Source: Patescibacteria group bacterium (GTDB lineage: Bacteria; Patescibacteriota; Gracilibacteria; UM-FILTER-43-11). From it: a DNA stretch of 34,657 nt. Under the pieces are notes generated by a model, which worked only from the letters and a program-made list of their open reading frames with translations, searched no databases and was not told where the DNA came from. Both the position numbers and the translations under genes were made by a program. Within the stretch, counting starts at the first letter, position 1. Every line of letters starts with the position of its first letter. The DNA lies in contig JAJDCF010000014.1 in assembly GCA_029260955.1 (NCBI GenBank), positions 1 to 34,657 of the forward strand, written 5' to 3'. Below are positions 4,481 to 32,196 of this stretch, in pieces.

Positions 4481-4981
4481 TTAAGATTCAGAAGATTTTT
4501 TGTTACTGCGTTTTGATTTTTTTTCGGCTTTGTGTTCCTTGCCACAAAAGGGGCAAATATTCCAAACGTTTGGAAAGGTTTTTTTGCATTTTGAGCAGGA
4601 TTTTTTTAGACTTTCGCCGCAATTGGGACAATAGCTGTAATCCTTGTCGGCTGGGGTAAGGCATTTGTCGCAAGTATTAAGCTCAGACTGACTTTCTCCC
4701 TCCATCATGTTTCTTTCGAGTTCTTCGTAGTAACGTTCAGTGCGGGTTTTACCAGGTCTTACGATTAAATACAAAAGAACACCAAGGATTGGCACAATAA
4801 TGACCAGTAAGATCGAAAAGGCCTGGAATAGAATGCTTTTACTTCTTTGTAAGACATCTCTGGTTACCCATATAATGATTGCTAGCCAAAGTAGAGAGAA
4901 ATAAGCCAGAACAGCTATTTTGACTGTACCGAACGTATCTGAGCTAAGAAAATCGATGGCTTGAGTTAGCAAAGGAGGCAT
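4481..4981 (-). CDS. Membrane protein with PLDc N-terminal-like hairpin and double zinc ribbon
   Basis: WVTRD...PILGVLLYLIVRP followed by four CxxC pairs (CDKC, CPNC, CSKC, CPFC). Confidence 0.85.
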   Translation of the reverse strand: MPPLLTQAIDFLSSDTFGTVKIAVLAYFSLLWLAIIIWVTRDVLQRSKSILFQAFSILLVIIVPILGVLLYLIVRPGKTRTERYYEELERNMMEGESQSELNTCDKCLTPADKDYSYCPNCGESLKKSCSKCKKTFPNVWNICPFCGKEHKAEKKSKRSNKKSSES

Positions 4982-4991
4982 AAGGATTTGG

Positions 4992-5732
4992 TTATGAGGT
5001 GATATGTGTTTTGTGTGTGCAGTGTATATAACCCACGAAGGCTAATGCTGCCAGAACGCCGTAAGAGATTTTAACATAAATTGAGGGTGATCCGTGAAGA
5101 AAATCTATTCCAAGCATTCCCAATGAGTAAATCATGAGTGCTCTGGCTCCTACAACTCCCGAAAGATGAATACGTTTACTCTGCTTTACGCTGTATGCGA
5201 GCAGAATAGCGGTTAGCAGCGCTGCATAAAGCTGCGTGGGGTGTATTGGTGAAACGAAGGGTATATTAGTGGCCTCAAACGATATGCCCCATGGCAGACT
5301 GGTTGGTAGGCCATAATTCTTGCCTGCGAAGAAGTATCCAATATGTACGAAAATAAGCATACCGAGCGATGACAGAAAGAAGGTATCAAACCAGGCCCAA
5401 AAATCCTCTTTATTTTTACGAGCGGCAAAGTAAAGTGTTGCAATAGCAGCAGCTAACATACCAAAAAAGCTGAATTTTAAATCCCATATGTAGATCACTG
5501 AAAGAAAATTGTGTTTAAACTCAGAAAGATTACTGATTACGTAAACCAGTCGACCTCCTAGAAGTGCAGCAACAATGACATGAGCCAAATACTCCGTTAC
5601 AAAGGCAAGGTTCATTTTATGCTTGTTGACGTAGCGGATCACAAAAGTTCCGGTAAAAAGAAAGCCTAAGGCTAGCAAAATATTAAGAGTGCGCACGGTA
5701 ACGAGAGAGTTCTGAAAGAGAATTTCAAGCAT
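4992..5732 (-). CDS. lgt: Lgt-family (prolipoprotein diacylglyceryl transferase-like) protein with degenerate catalytic motifs
   Basis: LLGGRLVYV, YGLPTSLPWGI and HPTQLY motifs with about 7 TM segments. Key residues appear substituted (see findings). Confidence 0.8.
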   Translation of the reverse strand: MLEILFQNSLVTVRTLNILLALGFLFTGTFVIRYVNKHKMNLAFVTEYLAHVIVAALLGGRLVYVISNLSEFKHNFLSVIYIWDLKFSFFGMLAAAIATLYFAARKNKEDFWAWFDTFFLSSLGMLIFVHIGYFFAGKNYGLPTSLPWGISFEATNIPFVSPIHPTQLYAALLTAILLAYSVKQSKRIHLSGVVGARALMIYSLGMLGIDFLHGSPSIYVKISYGVLAALAFVGYIHCTHKTHITS

Positions 5733-18159: not shown

Positions 18160-18180
18160 AAAGGTATAAATAATCTATAT

Positions 18181-18209
18181 ATTATACATCAAATCGGGCC
18201 ACTTTTCAA
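18181..18209 (-). promoter_or_regulatory. Near-consensus sigma70 promoter for the 1420-aa gene
   Basis: TTGAAA (18204-18209), 17 nt, TATAAT (18181-18186); 21 nt separate the -10 from the ATG. Confidence 0.75.
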
Positions 18210-18244
18210 GGGGGATTTGGCTTCCTGAAGCTAATATTTTATAT

Positions 18245-18322
18245 AAAGAAAGCCAGCCCCGATGGACTGGAAATGATGATGGATGGCCGAGTCGCAAAAT
18301 GAGTCGTTACTAGCTCACAGCC
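18245..18322 (-). ncRNA. Putative ~78-nt small RNA (promoter-to-terminator unit with no ORF)
   Basis: TTGACA-16-TATACT promoter with extended -10 (18329-18356); 5' GGCUG..CGGCC stem; terminator CCAGUCC-AUCG-GGGCUGG-CUUUCUUU (18245-18270); no ATG on this strand. Confidence 0.45.
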
Positions 18323-18362
18323 GTACCGAGTATAGCACCCTATGATTATTTGTCAAGTCGAA

Positions 18363-18394
18363 GTCCCGAGCCCACCCGAAGGTGAGCTCAGGAC
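18363..18394 (-). terminator. cUUCGg hairpin ending the 355-aa orphan gene
   Basis: GUCCUGAGCUCACC-UUCG-GGUGGGCUCGGGAC just after the stop codon; weak U tract. Confidence 0.65.
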
Positions 18395-18410
18395 GGTTGA
18401 CTCCGTTCGA

Positions 18411-19478
18411 CTACATGAAGACTGAACAGCGTGAGGGGCGAAGTTCGTCCTTGTTGTACTTGCTGCACTCCTTTTTGGCTCGGTTCTTCACTCGCGACCT
18501 GGCTTGGTCGTAGACGCCGAGCATGTGGTTGTAGACGCCGATGAGCAGACCGACGCCCTGCTTCTGTTCCTCGGTCAGTTTTTCGGGCTCGAGGGATAGG
18601 CCCACCACGGCGCTGAGCCCGCTCTCGATCTCGGCCTTTATTTCGGGGTCGATCTGGCCACGTAGAATGGCAAGGAGATCCTTCTTGTGTTCCGCCTCGC
18701 TCTTGCCTTGGCACTTCGGGTCGTCAGCGTCTTTGCCGAGGCAACCGATTGCTCGCAGGCCGTCATCGATCGCTTTCCAGAGCCGGCCGTAGTTCTCCAG
18801 CGCCAGGAACTCGCCCGAAGTGACGAGCGCTTGCTGAGTTATCGCTTTGGCGAGTTCCTCACCCTCACGCACCTGGTCGGCGAGTGCCTCCGGGGGCTTG
18901 ATGGAGGTGAGGAGTTCGGAATCGTCGTTCAGAGTAGAGGCGGGTATGAAGTCCTCCAGTACGGAGCCACCGAAGGAATCGCACTCGTTGGGTAGGGTGA
19001 TGAAGGGGGTCATGGGCTTCCGTGTGAAGCACATCTCCACCTTGGCCGCCCACTCTAGGTTGTGTTTGGCGGGTGGTGGCAGCTTGCAGATGTCTTCCTT
19101 GGGGAACTTCTGGCAGATTTTTTTCGCTTTTGCGATCTTTTCTGCCTTCTTGGCAGCCTGCATTTCGAGCTCGGCTTGCTGCTTGTAGTGCTTGTAATAC
19201 TCGACGGGTGCGCTGCCGATGGGGATTCCCAGGACGAGTGCCCACGAGAGCACAAACTGCATGTGCAGCGGGGCTTTCTTGCGCAGCTCGCGAACGGTGT
19301 AGTAGGTCAGGACCCCGAGCAGCGCTAGTGCAACGGCGATGTTGACCGAACTGGTCCTCTCGAGGGAGACATTAAAAGACATGACTCCAGTGTGCACAAG
19401 GAAGAGCATGGTAGCCGCTACCAAGCCCGTGGCGTTGAGCAAGGTATTGCCCATGAGTTTCTTCAGTTTTGTCTGCAT
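18411..19478 (-). CDS. GC-rich orphan membrane protein (3 N-terminal TM, Cys-containing soluble domain)
   Basis: 355-aa ORF. Two sampled 60-nt lines are 52% and 65% GC versus 42% in a sampled neighbouring line. Has its own promoter, leader and terminator. Confidence 0.75.
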   Translation of the reverse strand: MQTKLKKLMGNTLLNATGLVAATMLFLVHTGVMSFNVSLERTSSVNIAVALALLGVLTYYTVRELRKKAPLHMQFVLSWALVLGIPIGSAPVEYYKHYKQQAELEMQAAKKAEKIAKAKKICQKFPKEDICKLPPPAKHNLEWAAKVEMCFTRKPMTPFITLPNECDSFGGSVLEDFIPASTLNDDSELLTSIKPPEALADQVREGEELAKAITQQALVTSGEFLALENYGRLWKAIDDGLRAIGCLGKDADDPKCQGKSEAEHKKDLLAILRGQIDPEIKAEIESGLSAVVGLSLEPEKLTEEQKQGVGLLIGVYNHMLGVYDQARSRVKNRAKKECSKYNKDELRPSRCSVFM

Positions 19479-19640
19479 ATACTATTCGTTTTCTCGACTG
19501 TGTAGTCGAACAGAGGCCTTATCGGACGTAAGACTGATCCCGTAGTGGATCACCTTTCGCCTGAAGTTGGCCTCTGTTCAAATAATGATTTGAATGAGCA
19601 TTTGGCCTGTGATTCTACAATATATTAGGCTGTAAGTCAA
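19479..19640 (-). promoter_or_regulatory. Promoter, boxA-like motif and long-hairpin 5' leader of the 355-aa gene
   Basis: TTGACT (19635-19640), 17 nt, TAGAAT (19612-19617); TGCTCATTCA at 19591-19600; perfect 11-bp inverted repeat GAACAGAGGCC at 19508-19518 / 19569-19579. Confidence 0.55.
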
Positions 19641-19681
19641 ATCTAAAAGGCCTTGCTGCGCTGTAAGGCATTCCATTTTTT

Positions 19682-24573: not shown

Positions 24574-24649
24574 TGGAGCCACCTGGCGGGATTGAACCGC
24601 CGACCTACGCGTTACGAGTGCGTCGCTCTACCAACTGAGCTAAGGTGGC
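24574..24649 (-). tRNA. tRNA-Thr(CGT)
   Basis: GCCACCTTAGCTCAGTTGGTAGAGC...CT-CGT-AA...GGTTCAATCC...AGGTGGCTCCA; 76 nt, encoded CCA. Confidence 0.95.
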
Positions 24650-24725
24650 TGGTCGGGGAGACAGGACTCGAACCTGCGACCACACGACCCCCAGCCGTGC
24701 ATTCTACCAACTGAACTACTCCCCG
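24650..24725 (-). tRNA. tRNA-Pro(GGG)
   Basis: CGGGGAGTAGTTCAG...CACGG-CTGGGGG-TCGTG...GGTTCGAGTCC...CTCCCCGACCA; 76 nt. Confidence 0.95.
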
Positions 24726-24851
24726 TTTAGTGTTATTGCTTCATAATAGCTACGATGTAGGATATCATTTCAATGAAGTGCATGCTACTTTTTCTAGCTT
24801 TGCCTTATCTATCATCTGAAATTTAGGGGAATATGAAATTAAGCTGTGCTT

Positions 24852-25382
24852 ATGACTAGAGACTACAAGTCAATGCTGGGTGCCAAAGTTCTGGAATTTG
24901 ATTCCGGTGATCTGTTGGCTATGGTTAGCGGAATCATTGTTGATCCTGACAGTGGTATGGTCGAGGCATTTTGGGTAAAACCTACCACGCTTCCAGTTAA
25001 GAACGCAGTCTTAAGGGTTTCTGAAATCGTTGAATTGAAGAAGAATCTTTATATCAAATCAGAAAAAGTCCTAGCTCAGGCGGAAGATGTTATTAAAATT
25101 AACGAAATACTTGAGGATGGTCGTACTTTTATAGGCAACGCTGTTCAGAATGAAGCAGGTGATTCTTTTGGCACTTGCGTCAATCTAACTTTTGATACTG
25201 GTACATACGCCCTTAAGCAGGTTTACAGCAAGCGATCAATTTTGGGCCTTATCACTTTGGATGAACGTATTTTTTCTTACAACAACATAGTCAAAGTTCT
25301 TCCAGAAATGATTCTGGTGGATGATGATGGGAAGAAAAAGGAATCCGTGATGGCTACAACGCCGGAAGCAGCTGCAGGATAA
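24852..25382 (+). CDS. Tandem PRC-barrel domain protein (YrrD-like)
   Basis: Two LGxxV...G....V..I.VD-like units (MLGAKVLEFDSGDLLAMVSGIIVDP; FIGNAVQNEAGDSFGTCVNLTFD). Start may instead be GTG 24846. Confidence 0.75.
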   Translation: MTRDYKSMLGAKVLEFDSGDLLAMVSGIIVDPDSGMVEAFWVKPTTLPVKNAVLRVSEIVELKKNLYIKSEKVLAQAEDVIKINEILEDGRTFIGNAVQNEAGDSFGTCVNLTFDTGTYALKQVYSKRSILGLITLDERIFSYNNIVKVLPEMILVDDDGKKKESVMATTPEAAAG

Positions 25383-25396
25383 TAAACTAAGTTACT

Positions 25397-25435
25397 AAAA
25401 AAGCCCGCGTCTTAAAGACTTGGGCGGGCTTTTTT
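25397..25435. terminator. Bidirectional intrinsic terminator
   Basis: AAAAAAGCCCGC...GCGGGCTTTTTT between convergent genes. Confidence 0.85.
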
Positions 25436-25455
25436 GCTTGTGTAACAAATTCGCT

Positions 25456-25842
25456 TTATCCGAGAGCGGACGCAACGAAGGTGACGATAGTCCAAGAGAG
25501 AAGGATGATCACGATACCGATAACGGCATAAGTGATGATCTTTCGAGCTTTTCCGACTTGTTCGTCGTTTCCTCCAGCAGTGACCATAAGGACACCAGCG
25601 TAGATTAGGAATGCAACGGAAATCAATCCGAGAATTCCCAGGAAGTAGTTGATTATAAGTGTGATGTTCTGCCCTAGGGTTCCTTGAGCTGCGGCAGAAG
25701 GGGCAGCGCCTCCTTGTGGATTATCAAAAAATGATGCGCTTTGAGCGAATGCATTTGTAGCAAATGCTCCGAAAGCGGCCATCATTGAAGAGGTTTTTAA
25801 GGCGAGTTTTTTCATTTTTGTCTTATTAGTTTGTAATTTCAT
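25456..25842 (-). CDS. CPR-type VirB2/TrbC-like pilin
   Basis: Signal peptide ending AFA, then two TM helices around YAGVLMVTAGGNDEQVGKARKIITYAVIG. Alternative start at 25815. Confidence 0.85.
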   Translation of the reverse strand: MKLQTNKTKMKKLALKTSSMMAAFGAFATNAFAQSASFFDNPQGGAAPSAAAQGTLGQNITLIINYFLGILGLISVAFLIYAGVLMVTAGGNDEQVGKARKIITYAVIGIVIILLSWTIVTFVASALG

Positions 25843-25931
25843 ATTTAATTATACCAAATGGCCCTAATAGCCGTCAATAATTAGCAGCCACATAATTTTA
25901 GTTTCTGATTGACAGAATAGATTAGTATTTC

Positions 25932-26441
25932 TTATTCCATTAGCCACCTAAGGGTTGCGACAAGACTTTTTTCTAGGTCATCTGAGAACCATCCATCAAT
26001 ATACTTGATCACATCTTCCTGCTTTGTGGACTTATGGTCTCTAATGATTTCGGTTGCACTCCTTTCTTTGCTGCCTGTTGCAAGATCAACCAGTTGATTC
26101 CCACTTATGAGTTCCAAGGTGATGGGCTTTTCGCAGTCTGCTTCTATTTGGGCTAGCTCTTGGGGGTCCCAACTTAAAAGATCGCAGAATTTTCCAAGAT
26201 TTCCACTATTCATTGCTTTGAGTGTGAATAGTATCTTTGTGCGCACATCTTCAATGGTGTCAGTTTCTTTTATACCAATATCTTCCATGACTGTTGCCAA
26301 ATCTCTGGTGCCTTTATTGTCTATGGTTAGGTAATCTCCCTTTTTTTCTATCGTACCAGATGCATCAGAAGCAGTTAATAATGTGCGGCCAACTGGCTCG
26401 CCTTCTAGTTCATGGTGTTCAACATATGCTTTTAGCCCCAT
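25932..26441 (-). CDS. Hypothetical acidic protein (169 aa)
   Basis: Clean ORF with its own promoter TTGACT-16-TATAAT (26469-26496), downstream of the tRNA cluster. Confidence 0.7.
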   Translation of the reverse strand: MGLKAYVEHHELEGEPVGRTLLTASDASGTIEKKGDYLTIDNKGTRDLATVMEDIGIKETDTIEDVRTKILFTLKAMNSGNLGKFCDLLSWDPQELAQIEADCEKPITLELISGNQLVDLATGSKERSATEIIRDHKSTKQEDVIKYIDGWFSDDLEKSLVATLRWLME

Positions 26442-26520
26442 AATGATGTGAGGTTGGAAATGGTGTTTATTATAGTATATACCAAAGATAAGTCAAGTTA
26501 TTCAACTTCACATAAATGGA

Positions 26521-26597
26521 TGGTCGGGGAGACAGGACTCGAACCTGCGACATCACGCTCCCAAAGCGTGCACTCTAGCCAACTGAGCTACTCCCCG
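26521..26597 (-). tRNA. tRNA-Pro(TGG)
   Basis: CGGGGAGTAGCTCAG...CACGC-TTTGGGA-GCGTG...CTCCCCGACCA; 77 nt. Confidence 0.95.
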
Positions 26598-26618
26598 ACA
26601 TGTCGATTTTGGAATGGA

Positions 26619-26703
26619 TGGTGGGCAGGGAGGGATTCGAACCCCCGAAGGCGGAGCCATCTGGTTTACAGCCAGACCCGGTTGACCACTTCGGTACCTA
26701 CCC
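26619..26703 (-). tRNA. tRNA-Tyr(GTA)
   Basis: GGGTAGG...TCTGG-CTGTAAA-CCAGA, long variable arm, GGTTCGAATCC...CCTGCCCACCA; 85 nt. Confidence 0.95.
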
Positions 26704-26730
26704 ACGTTTATCCCATTGTAACAGAGTTAC

Positions 26731-26806
26731 TGGAGCCACCTTCCGGGTTCGAACCGGAGACAATCCGCTTACAAGGCGGGCGCTCTACCAACTGAGCTAA
26801 GGTGGC
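26731..26806 (-). tRNA. tRNA-Thr(TGT)
   Basis: GCCACCTTAGCTCAGTTGG...CCGC-CTTGTAA-GCGG...AGGTGGCTCCA; 76 nt. Confidence 0.95.
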
Positions 26807-26897: not shown

Positions 26898-27010
26898 CGA
26901 CATTATGCGTCAATTAAATTAATTCAATTTTATGCCAGCGTCAATGAATAGATTAGATTATCTGGCAAAATTATAGTAAATGTGTTATAAACCCTAATGC
27001 TATTGAATCT

Positions 27011-27357
27011 TTTAAACCGTAGTAGTCGCTCTTCCGCCACGGCGGAGGAGAGGAAAGTCCGAGCACCCTAGAGCAAGGGTGGTCGCTAACGGCGACCGGC
27101 GTGTTGGTAACAGCGCGCAAGGGAAAGTGCCACAGAAACTATTTCTTTCGTTTCGACGGATAAGAATGAAAAGTCCGTGATAATTAGCACGGTCCCTCTA
27201 TCAGTGATGTTAGAGGGCGGCAAACCCCACCTGGTGCAAGGTATGCATGGGGGAATGGAATATGTAATGGCTCGTTATACCATTTCTGCTACCGCTTAGA
27301 TAGATGACTACTCGCCTGGCTTCGGCTAGGTGACAGAACTCGGCTTATGAGTTTAAA
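27011..27357 (+). ncRNA. rnpB: RNase P RNA (bacterial type A-like, apparently lacking P18)
   Basis: GAGGAAAGTCCGAGC (CR-I), AGTGCCACAGAAA, CGGCAAACCCC, GTGCAAGG, AGATAGATGA, ACAGAACTCGGCTTA (CR-V); P1 TTTAAAC/GTTTAAA. Confidence 0.95.
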
Positions 27358-27383
27358 TTTTTCACTGGCATTTACCTTTTTTT

Positions 27384-31450: not shown

Positions 31451-31458
31451 CGAAAGCA

Positions 31459-31478
31459 GCGGACACCGAAGTGCCCGC
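31459..31478 (-). terminator. cUUCGg hairpin ending the 172-aa orphan gene
   Basis: GCGGGCAC-UUCG-GUGUCCGC-UGCUUU between convergent genes. Confidence 0.65.
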
Positions 31479-31502
31479 CGCCGTTGCCCTGTTCCTTGCG
31501 CG

Positions 31503-32021: not shown

Positions 32022-32196
32022 TTTTAGACTAACCTCGTTCACGATGTCATACCCTGCTGTTAGCAAACAGGGCATCTGTGCCTGATTTTTGAATGGATTA
32101 TCCCTCAAATATCAATGACGTCAGATCACTGCTCGCTAGATTGAAATGCTAAAGATCAAAGGTTGGTATTAAACCATGCATGATTAAATAAGTCAA
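32022..32196 (-). promoter_or_regulatory. Promoter, boxA-like motif and long-hairpin 5' leader of the 172-aa gene
   Basis: TTGACT (32191-32196), 17 nt, TTTAAT (32168-32173); TGATCTTTAGCA at 32147-32158; 10-bp stem TAGCGAGCAG (32129-32138) / CTGTTTGCTA (32061-32070) closing nested helices. Confidence 0.5.

Follow-up and report, generated by a model that had tools for sequence, protein, structure and literature searches.

Helices formed between the leader and the trailer of a transcript have been described for ribosomal RNA (rRNA) (PMC10250234, PMC11404451), and a term search of the available text of one of these reports returned no mention of messenger RNA (mRNA) units (PMC11404451). The boxA element and the Nus factors that it recruits are viewed as a device of rRNA operons and phages with, in the available text of one survey, no more than a few mRNA targets in each genome (PMC5725501). 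The same text counts 407 putative boxA sites in 314 gamma-proteobacterial genomes, at 0-7 per genome, and leads to the expectation of few targets per species (Baniulyte et al., 2017; PMC5725501). Here, we analyze a stretch of 34,657 nucleotides (nt), hereafter the window, from a Patescibacteria group bacterium (Gracilibacteria, UM-FILTER-43-11; contig JAJDCF010000014.1 of assembly GCA_029260955.1). The window carries two single-gene units, cassettes A and B, on its minus strand. On balance, we favor the view that A and B are members of a large class of single-gene units laid out like the 16S rRNA unit of the family, whose mRNAs would be transcribed in the manner of rRNA by a Nus-loaded RNA polymerase. 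The genome to which the window belongs (G000) comprises 1.22 Mb in 112 contigs with a guanine-plus-cytosine (GC) content of 0.432, and four further genomes of the same genus (G001-G004) serve for comparison.

The rRNA operon leader is the closest described counterpart of these units. In G014, a relative assembled as one contig, the 16S unit starts with a promoter and boxA. One strand of a ~29-bp helix comes 6 nt further on, and its partner strand, located 70 nt beyond the 3′ end of the 16S gene, is followed by a terminator. Like the rRNA operon, the units consist of a promoter, boxA, a 5′ strand, a body, a 3′ strand, and a terminator, and their boxA motif is that of the genome's 16S leader. 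The order proposed for the class would accordingly begin with a strong sigma-70-type promoter and a boxA that follows the transcript start by a few bases. A structured leader and the open reading frame (ORF) would come next, then a leader-complementary trailer immediately after the stop codon, and finally a stable 3′ hairpin. Many mRNA units share the G014 16S plan exactly. However, in many others, including A, B, and the R1 leader family described below, the 5′ strand sits on the 3′ arm of a leader hairpin. The units also differ from the rRNA operon in that their body is a translated ORF rather than a stable RNA, their helices are mostly 9-20 bp rather than ~30 bp long, and dozens of them occur per 1.2-Mb genome, in which Rho and SuhB were not found. 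Units of the window's genus have GC-rich ORFs, the products of which are, as a rule, membrane proteins or lipoproteins that evolve fast.

The leader of the phage lambda N gene, in which the boxA of nutL is followed by an RNase III-sensitive hairpin, resembles the units in placing boxA and then a large leader hairpin before an ORF. Unlike the units, it needs the N protein and boxB, has no trailer pairing, and belongs to a phage regulatory circuit rather than to a chromosomal gene class. An rRNA-type helix that is cut by RNase III is about two turns long; the helices of A (13 bp) and B (10 bp) fall short of this length, and some units of relatives reach 20-30 bp. The boxA of suhB shares with the units its location in the 5′ untranslated region (UTR) of an mRNA and the use of Nus factors beyond rRNA, but it serves repression, with Rho termination as the last step, and the available text describes no pairing with a trailer (PMC5725501). 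A literature search, in which subscription journals were poorly covered, found no report of boxA together with leader-trailer pairing around protein-coding genes, nor of boxA in Patescibacteria. An rRNA-operon-like layout for protein-coding genes seems to be undescribed.

The class emerges from the genome as a whole. An ORF scan of G000 found ~27 non-overlapping GC-rich ORFs on ~20 contigs, with a GC content of 0.54-0.63, which is 12-20 points above that of the genome, and a GC content at third codon positions (GC3) of 0.6-0.9. Inspected by eye, nearly all of the 28 upstream regions listed contain a TTGAC-type promoter followed by TG(A/C/T)TC(T/A/C)TT and an A-rich run. Because TGATCTTTTGAA, the same motif, follows the 16S rRNA promoter in this genome, the motif is this organism's boxA, which strengthens the reading of the A and B motifs as boxA in the original prediction. 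The boxA core G[ACT]TCTTT occurs at -250 to -20 ahead of 15/26 GC-rich ORFs and 65/896 others (Fisher p = 1.2e-10, with paralogues not independent in this test), and its matches ahead of ordinary genes lie mostly within upstream coding sequence. A composite promoter-plus-boxA pattern has 9 matches in G000 versus 2 for the control. Among 31 family genomes from 17 genera, it is present in 28, with 115 matches versus 32 for the reversed pattern; outside the family but within the same class, matches number 0-4 in most genomes and about ten in a few. ORFs in other genera are often far richer in GC than their surroundings (for example, 0.55 against 0.36 and 0.67 against 0.43).

The original prediction that A and B belong to a family of cassettes is borne out for the single-gene unit of promoter, boxA, structured leader, GC-rich ORF, and 3′ hairpin, of which ~27 occur in the genome. 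About 25 of these in G000 are additional to A and B, more are found in relatives across the 17 genera, and their ordered layout exceeds chance. It fails for a homologous leader RNA shared by A and B. Rather than one leader RNA family, several unrelated leader families share a single layout. The finding is real and larger than the original prediction held. A Pfam scan of 26 GC-rich ORFs left 18 without a match at E ≤ 0.01, and the other eight yielded one SLH domain above the cut-off and seven matches below it (among them VanY three times, DZR twice, and PhdYeFM once), so no function can be assigned to them. Many of the GC-rich ORFs begin with a signal peptide and a lipobox cysteine.

Promoter and boxA were also observed in other surroundings. 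At ~4920-5040 of G000 contig C46 (L027), they precede an ORF that is not GC-rich and whose N-terminus resembles, by eye, that of ribosomal protein S1, and a tRNA of G018 (L079) also lies downstream of boxA. A conserved promoter-plus-boxA leader, TTGACAAT..CATATTATAAT..CTCCAC..CTGATCTTT, recurs in six genomes (L017, L023, L084, and G011, G021, G023), where it is followed by a ~250-nt stretch that is not GC-rich and by a short ORF.

Complementarity between leader and trailer, a feature absent from the original prediction, ties the units to the plan of the rRNA operon. RNAduplex energies and the longest G-U-tolerant run in large windows discriminated poorly against a high background and were dropped for a scored local alignment in smaller windows. 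In G000, where 260 nt around the start were aligned with 33 nt at the stop, a score of at least 24 is reached by 7/27 GC-rich ORFs and 18/905 others (p = 2.5e-6), and a score of at least 20 by 15/27 and 125/905, respectively. Across 62 units with complete ORFs from 24 genomes, 9/62 cognate pairs score at least 24 compared with 37/3544 non-cognate pairs, in which the leader and the trailer come from different genomes (Mann-Whitney U test, p = 6.6e-6). The excess is also seen in genera other than the window's, at 8/41 cognate versus 13/1480 non-cognate pairs. Controls within the loci of 30 units place the partner of the trailer in the transcribed leader, because they score lower than leader against trailer (mean 17.9): the mean is 14.0 for the region upstream of the promoter against the trailer (p = 4e-4), 15.3 for the leader against a stretch located 90 nt beyond the trailer (p = 0.008), and 13.7 when the trailer is compared with part of the ORF (p = 8e-5).

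Individual helices are consistent with these distributions. In G000, the units C58, C82, and C23 have perfect leader-trailer matches of 12-14 bp, and C67 has 12 bp with one G-U pair. Helices in relatives, among them G009, G019, G016, and G020, measure 20, 16, 15, and 14 bp (perfect) and 13 bp, with ~26-30 bp in two cases. Separately, the gene of an 871-amino-acid (aa) secreted protein at C111:4570-7185 has a GC content of 0.46 and a perfect 14-bp leader-trailer match (CTATCACCAACATC/GATGTTGGTGATAG), which means that pairing is not tied to high GC.

The R1 leader family, together with compensatory change seen by eye in the C39 family, is the basis for covariation; A and B are orphans without orthologues. 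Four tandem lipoprotein genes at C32:7000-12800 of G000 (L037) each have a promoter, boxA, an R1-type hairpin, a trailer match, and a terminator. Aligned with its relatives, the C32-type leader forms a ~90-nt hairpin with compensatory changes at 11/30 pairs. The R1 covariance model finds 25 places in 14/31 family genomes and 6/17 genera, and the ORFs behind them almost all encode lipoproteins. Of these places, 14 have a fully callable ORF, 7 run off the locus, and 4 lack a start. In 11/14 callable places, the trailer forms its best helix with the hairpin's 3′ arm, and both sides change together, as in the arm/trailer pairs TGATTCCCCC/GGGGGAATCA, CGATTCCCCC/GGGGGAATCG, GGATTCCCC/GGGGAATCC, GGTTCTCTCAGC/GCTGAGAGAACC, TGGATTCCCCTC/GAGGGGAATCCG, and GTGAGTCCCCCC/GGGGGGACTCAC. 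The trailer complements the 3′ arm better than the hairpin's own 5′ arm does, which suggests an exchange of pairing partners after the trailer has been synthesized.

The C67 family provides a further view of these flanks. Its members share 70-77% identity in leaders and 79-84% in trailers, compared with 36-39% in proteins (25-30% by multiple alignment). Judged by these identities, the flanks are held while the ORFs evolve fast. A search for related loci with this family returned two distant relatives only.

The factors that such a mode of transcription would use are encoded in G000. The nusB gene is adjacent to the RNase III gene (rnc) at C70:6235-7077 (L005, L006), and nusG and nusA were also found. 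Thus, of the two genes named in the original prediction, nusB is present, but the Rho_RNA_bind domain was found in 0/31 family genomes, while the same profile was found in 9 control genomes. Since Rho was not found, the loading of Nus factors by boxA, if real, would not serve here to fend off Rho.

The anatomy of the units and the comparison with rRNA suggest the following mechanism. The boxA RNA would load NusB and S10, with NusG and NusA, onto RNA polymerase. The modified polymerase would then pass the GC-rich ORF without a pause or stop, keeping the 5′ leader near. As the trailer emerges, it would pair with the leader, and the ORF would be enclosed by a helix in the way that 16S rRNA is. 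The helix could pair the mRNA ends and so protect them from exonucleases, or it could be where RNase III cuts. Nus binding, tethering, pairing at the level of RNA rather than DNA, and processing are all steps that we infer. A broader proposal, which we regard as possible but doubtful, is that the family sends a whole class of mRNAs, mostly for lipoproteins and membrane proteins that evolve fast, down the pathway of rRNA biogenesis, with a Nus tether, helix closure, and messages that are end-paired or trimmed by RNase III. The conserved leaders and trailers would then be reusable "expression sockets" in which ORFs diversify, stay GC-rich, and are swapped between strains.

Several observations weigh against this Nus-based reading. 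The helix of B, with a score of 18.5 that ~15% of non-cognate pairs reach, lacks significance by itself, and when B is co-folded, its trailer prefers the end next to boxA instead. The leader strand of A is buried in local hairpins in the predicted fold; when A is co-folded, the big hairpin persists and a 9-bp leader-trailer helix forms in addition (change in free energy of -3.7 kcal/mol). A search for RNA sequencing runs that contain this stretch of DNA returned none. Both helices are far below the ~29 bp of the 16S unit, and roughly half of the units have no clear helix with the windows and ORF calls used. Internal mismatches in 40 helices comprise 8 G-U, 8 A-C, and 4 others; by eye, those flanked by at least 4 pairs on each side number ~5-6 G-U versus 2 A-C, and neither count favors pairing in RNA over repeats in DNA. 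The boxA-like motif of A has an A at position 6, a site at which transversions in lambda boxA are not tolerated, as they are not at positions 2 and 5, according to the available text of PMC3177189. This A6 variant recurs at the same place in several other units. A search of G000, a genome of 90.6% completeness, found no member of the SuhB family (PF00459, Inositol_P). Finally, kin and paralogues inflate all p-values.

The features listed for A and B in the original prediction are all present on the minus strand, to which all coordinates of the two cassettes refer; their promoters, start sites, boxA motifs, hairpins, and helices are predicted from the sequence. Cassette A is a block of 1318 bp (18358..19675) between a nifU-type gene, whose stop codon lies at 19684-19682, and the promoter of a 1420-aa ORF, which begins with CTTGACA from 18357. 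At the 5′ edge of the block, a weak 5-bp hairpin followed by TTTT (19645..19669) can be read from the sequence; this terminator-like element may insulate the cassette from the suf operon. The sigma-70-type promoter (19612..19640) has a -35 element, TTGACT (19640-19635), a 17-nt spacer, and a -10 element, TAGAAT (19617-19612). The boxA-like motif TGCTCATTCAAA lies at 19589..19600, 12 nt past the -10 hexamer, and has the A at position 6 where rRNA boxA has T. A long, imperfect leader hairpin (19508..19579) is closed by an 11-bp basal stem, GAACAGAGGCC × GGCCTCTGTTC. The 137-nt leader folds at -46.0 kcal/mol (z = -5.14), a stability reached by 0/200 shuffles, and a second shuffle set gives z = -6.1 for the hairpin.

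The ORF of cassette A (P0001; 18411..19478) encodes 355 aa with a GC content of 0.58 and a GC3 of 0.76; by eye, the protein has three N-terminal hydrophobic segments and a Cys-containing C-terminal part. The leader strand CTCTGTTCGACTA (19503..19515), which overlaps the 3′ arm of the hairpin, is complementary to the trailer strand TAGTCGAACGGAG (18401..18413) over 13 bp with one G-U pair, and the trailer strand includes the TAG stop codon. Its score is 24.5. A 12-bp 3′ hairpin with a C-UUCG-G loop (18365..18392) follows, without a U-tract after it. Next to the cassette, at 18160-18357 (minus strand), a non-coding leader stands behind a strong promoter (18356-18329) and ahead of the 1420-aa ORF (18159-13897). 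This leader starts with GGCTGTGAGCTAGTAACG, has no Rfam match, and is conserved in each of the four same-genus genomes.

Cassette B has a promoter at 32168..32196 with a -35 element, TTGACT (32196-32191), a 17-nt spacer, and a -10 element, TTTAAT (32173-32168). Its boxA, TGATCTTTAGCA (32147..32158), lies 10 nt past the -10 hexamer, and its first 8 bases are identical to the 16S-leader boxA of G000. The B boxA and the genome's rRNA boxA have A, not Y, at the second position of the pattern GYTCTTTAANA given in the available text of PMC5725501. Of the two leader hairpins noted in the original prediction, that of B (32061..32137) is weak (z = -1.77, with 9/200 shuffles equally stable; z = -2.7 in a second shuffle set). 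The leader strand TGCCCTGTTT (32065..32074) pairs with the trailer strand GAACAGGGCA (31485..31494) over 10 bp. The ORF (P0002; 31503..32021) encodes 172 aa with a GC content of 0.54-0.55, and no signal peptide was seen in it. A 3′ hairpin with a C-UUCG-G loop (31456..31481) has a short TTT after it.

Both proteins are orphans. The Pfam scan gave no match for P0001 or P0002. P0001 has no relative in 60 related genomes, a search of 5.8 billion proteins returned P0001 alone, and a comparison with the Atlas reached a best score of 0.79 and gave no lead. No relative of P0002 was found in the 4 same-genus genomes. In a search of the window with Rfam, no leader or cis-regulatory family matched at the gathering score. 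The only matches, both ordinary, are a class A RNase P RNA (176 bits, 27009-27363) and seven tRNAs, five of which form a cluster at 24574-26806.

The leaders of A and B are unrelated as sequences, contrary to the likeness claimed for them in the original prediction. Their local alignment score of 19 equals the shuffle mean of 19.0, and 246/500 shuffles reach it. Because the leaders are no more alike than shuffles, the shared words CATTCAAATC/CATTTCAATC, GAACAG/GAGCAG, and AACGA..TAGT carry no weight. The word TTGACTTA has 23 copies in the genome, several of them in ordinary promoters. BLASTN of the A and B leaders and trailers against the genome gave self matches only, and the R1 covariance model, run over the window with filters off, had no match on A or B (best E = 3.5, elsewhere). 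A single covariance model built from A and B is therefore pointless.

Precise empty sites for both cassettes exist in same-genus genomes. All four of these genomes have an orthologue of the nifU-type gene that lies upstream of A. In G001, G002, and G004, the giant downstream gene, with its promoter and conserved leader, begins within ~45 nt of this orthologue, so cassette A is a clean extra block at 18358-19675. In G003 (L054), an unrelated ~0.9-kb insert with an AT-rich ORF on the reverse strand lies 3′ of nifU; a repeat of the nifU 3′ end then stands just before the promoter of the giant gene. For cassette B, the TrmB-type gene of G001 abuts the tRNA-Thr gene and leaves no space for the unit. 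The inserted block of A extends ~160 nt and 43 nt beyond the complementary segments, and these segments are thus not its ends. No mobility gene and no shared end sequence were seen at its borders. From these comparisons, the units are apparently gained and lost as whole blocks between species.

Among the other explanations, the one that fares best is that boxA is the site of a Nus-dependent repressor or attenuator, as in Escherichia coli suhB, or of another RNA-binding protein, and that the hairpin and the trailer set stability or translation apart from Nus. We consider this unlikely. There is precedent for it, since the available text of PMC5725501 reports that suhB is repressed by Nus factors through a boxA in its 5′ UTR and that boxA-like sites precede other mRNAs. 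In G000, the nusB ORF is itself preceded, at a distance of ~144 nt, by a boxA core, GCTCTTTCAAAA, which may point to Nus autoregulation. However, boxA in the units lies 50-150 nt from the start codon, whereas the search in the available text of PMC5725501 covered 50 nt before annotated starts. Repression of suhB ends, according to the same text, in Rho-dependent termination, and Rho was not found in the family genomes. The layout of the units, moreover, copies the rRNA unit, in which the complex promotes transcription.

A second explanation takes A and B as ordinary orphan genes with a strong promoter and hairpins of their own, the boxA-like motif of A being non-functional and the leader-trailer matches of both being due to chance. 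The unrelated leaders, the weak hairpin of B, the non-significant helix of B, and the departure of the A motif from the consensus at position 6 all agree with it. Nonetheless, the association of boxA and leader-trailer complementarity with GC-rich ORFs holds genome-wide, the A score is reached by only ~1% of non-cognate pairs, and the layout occurs with covariation in other genera. We consider this explanation quite unlikely.

The original prediction proposed that the cassettes are portable and meant to express or mobilize recently imported foreign genes. The whole-block insertions with empty sites in congeners, the high GC content of the ORFs, which is far above background, and the absence of P0001 and P0002 from same-genus genomes are what an import would leave. 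However, no donor or homologue was found for P0001 anywhere searched, and the borders of A have neither a mobility gene nor a shared end sequence. Orthologous cassettes keep their high GC content and conserved flanks across species and genera, which indicates a maintained property rather than recent import and makes the foreign-gene reading improbable.

The complementary segments could also act in DNA, as inverted repeats for inversion (phase variation of surface proteins) or for recombination that moves the cassette. They enclose whole ORFs, in many cases those of lipoproteins, the presence of cassettes varies from species to species, a common core is kept in the repeats of the R1 family, and the equal G-U and A-C counts are what DNA repeats would allow. 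The units resemble integron cassettes as single-gene modules that are variably present and sometimes tandem (four on C32 of G000), but they carry their own promoter and terminator and have no common recombination core, whereas an integron cassette is a promoterless ORF with a 3′ attC site that bears conserved core sites, in an array beside intI. The repeats differ completely between leader families, so there is no single recombinase site. The 5′ repeat lies within the transcribed leader and not upstream of the promoter, block A overshoots its repeats at both ends, and G-U pairs take part in the covariation of the leader hairpin to which the same strand belongs. No clear antisense GC-rich cassette appeared among 87 promoter-plus-boxA units in a crude test (71 sense, 15 antisense and mostly low-GC, and 1 with neither), in which orientation was called from codon-position GC, a measure unreliable for low-GC ORFs. 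Contigs from 3 DNA runs of one study, which cover the cassette, contain no strand-changing joints, with the caveat that contigs drop rare variants; one short divergent contig from these runs departs from the window at 18337 and offers too little to use. Invertons have a shared recombinase site and occur in both orientations; with repeats unrelated between families and no inverted GC-rich cassette seen in the crude test, the units do not fit this pattern, and an action in DNA is the least probable of the explanations considered.

The reading of A and B as rRNA-style units leaves one puzzle, which is that the GC content of the ORFs, so far above that of the genome, finds no explanation in the layout. 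If the reading is true, the Nus machinery can serve as the general expression mode of a gene class in a genome without Rho. The units would then offer a model for the role of the complex without Rho, such as speed, anti-pausing, or the pairing of RNA ends. The layout also marks fast-evolving, probably surface-exposed proteins of uncultured episymbiotic bacteria, which are likely host-interaction genes that carry no annotation.

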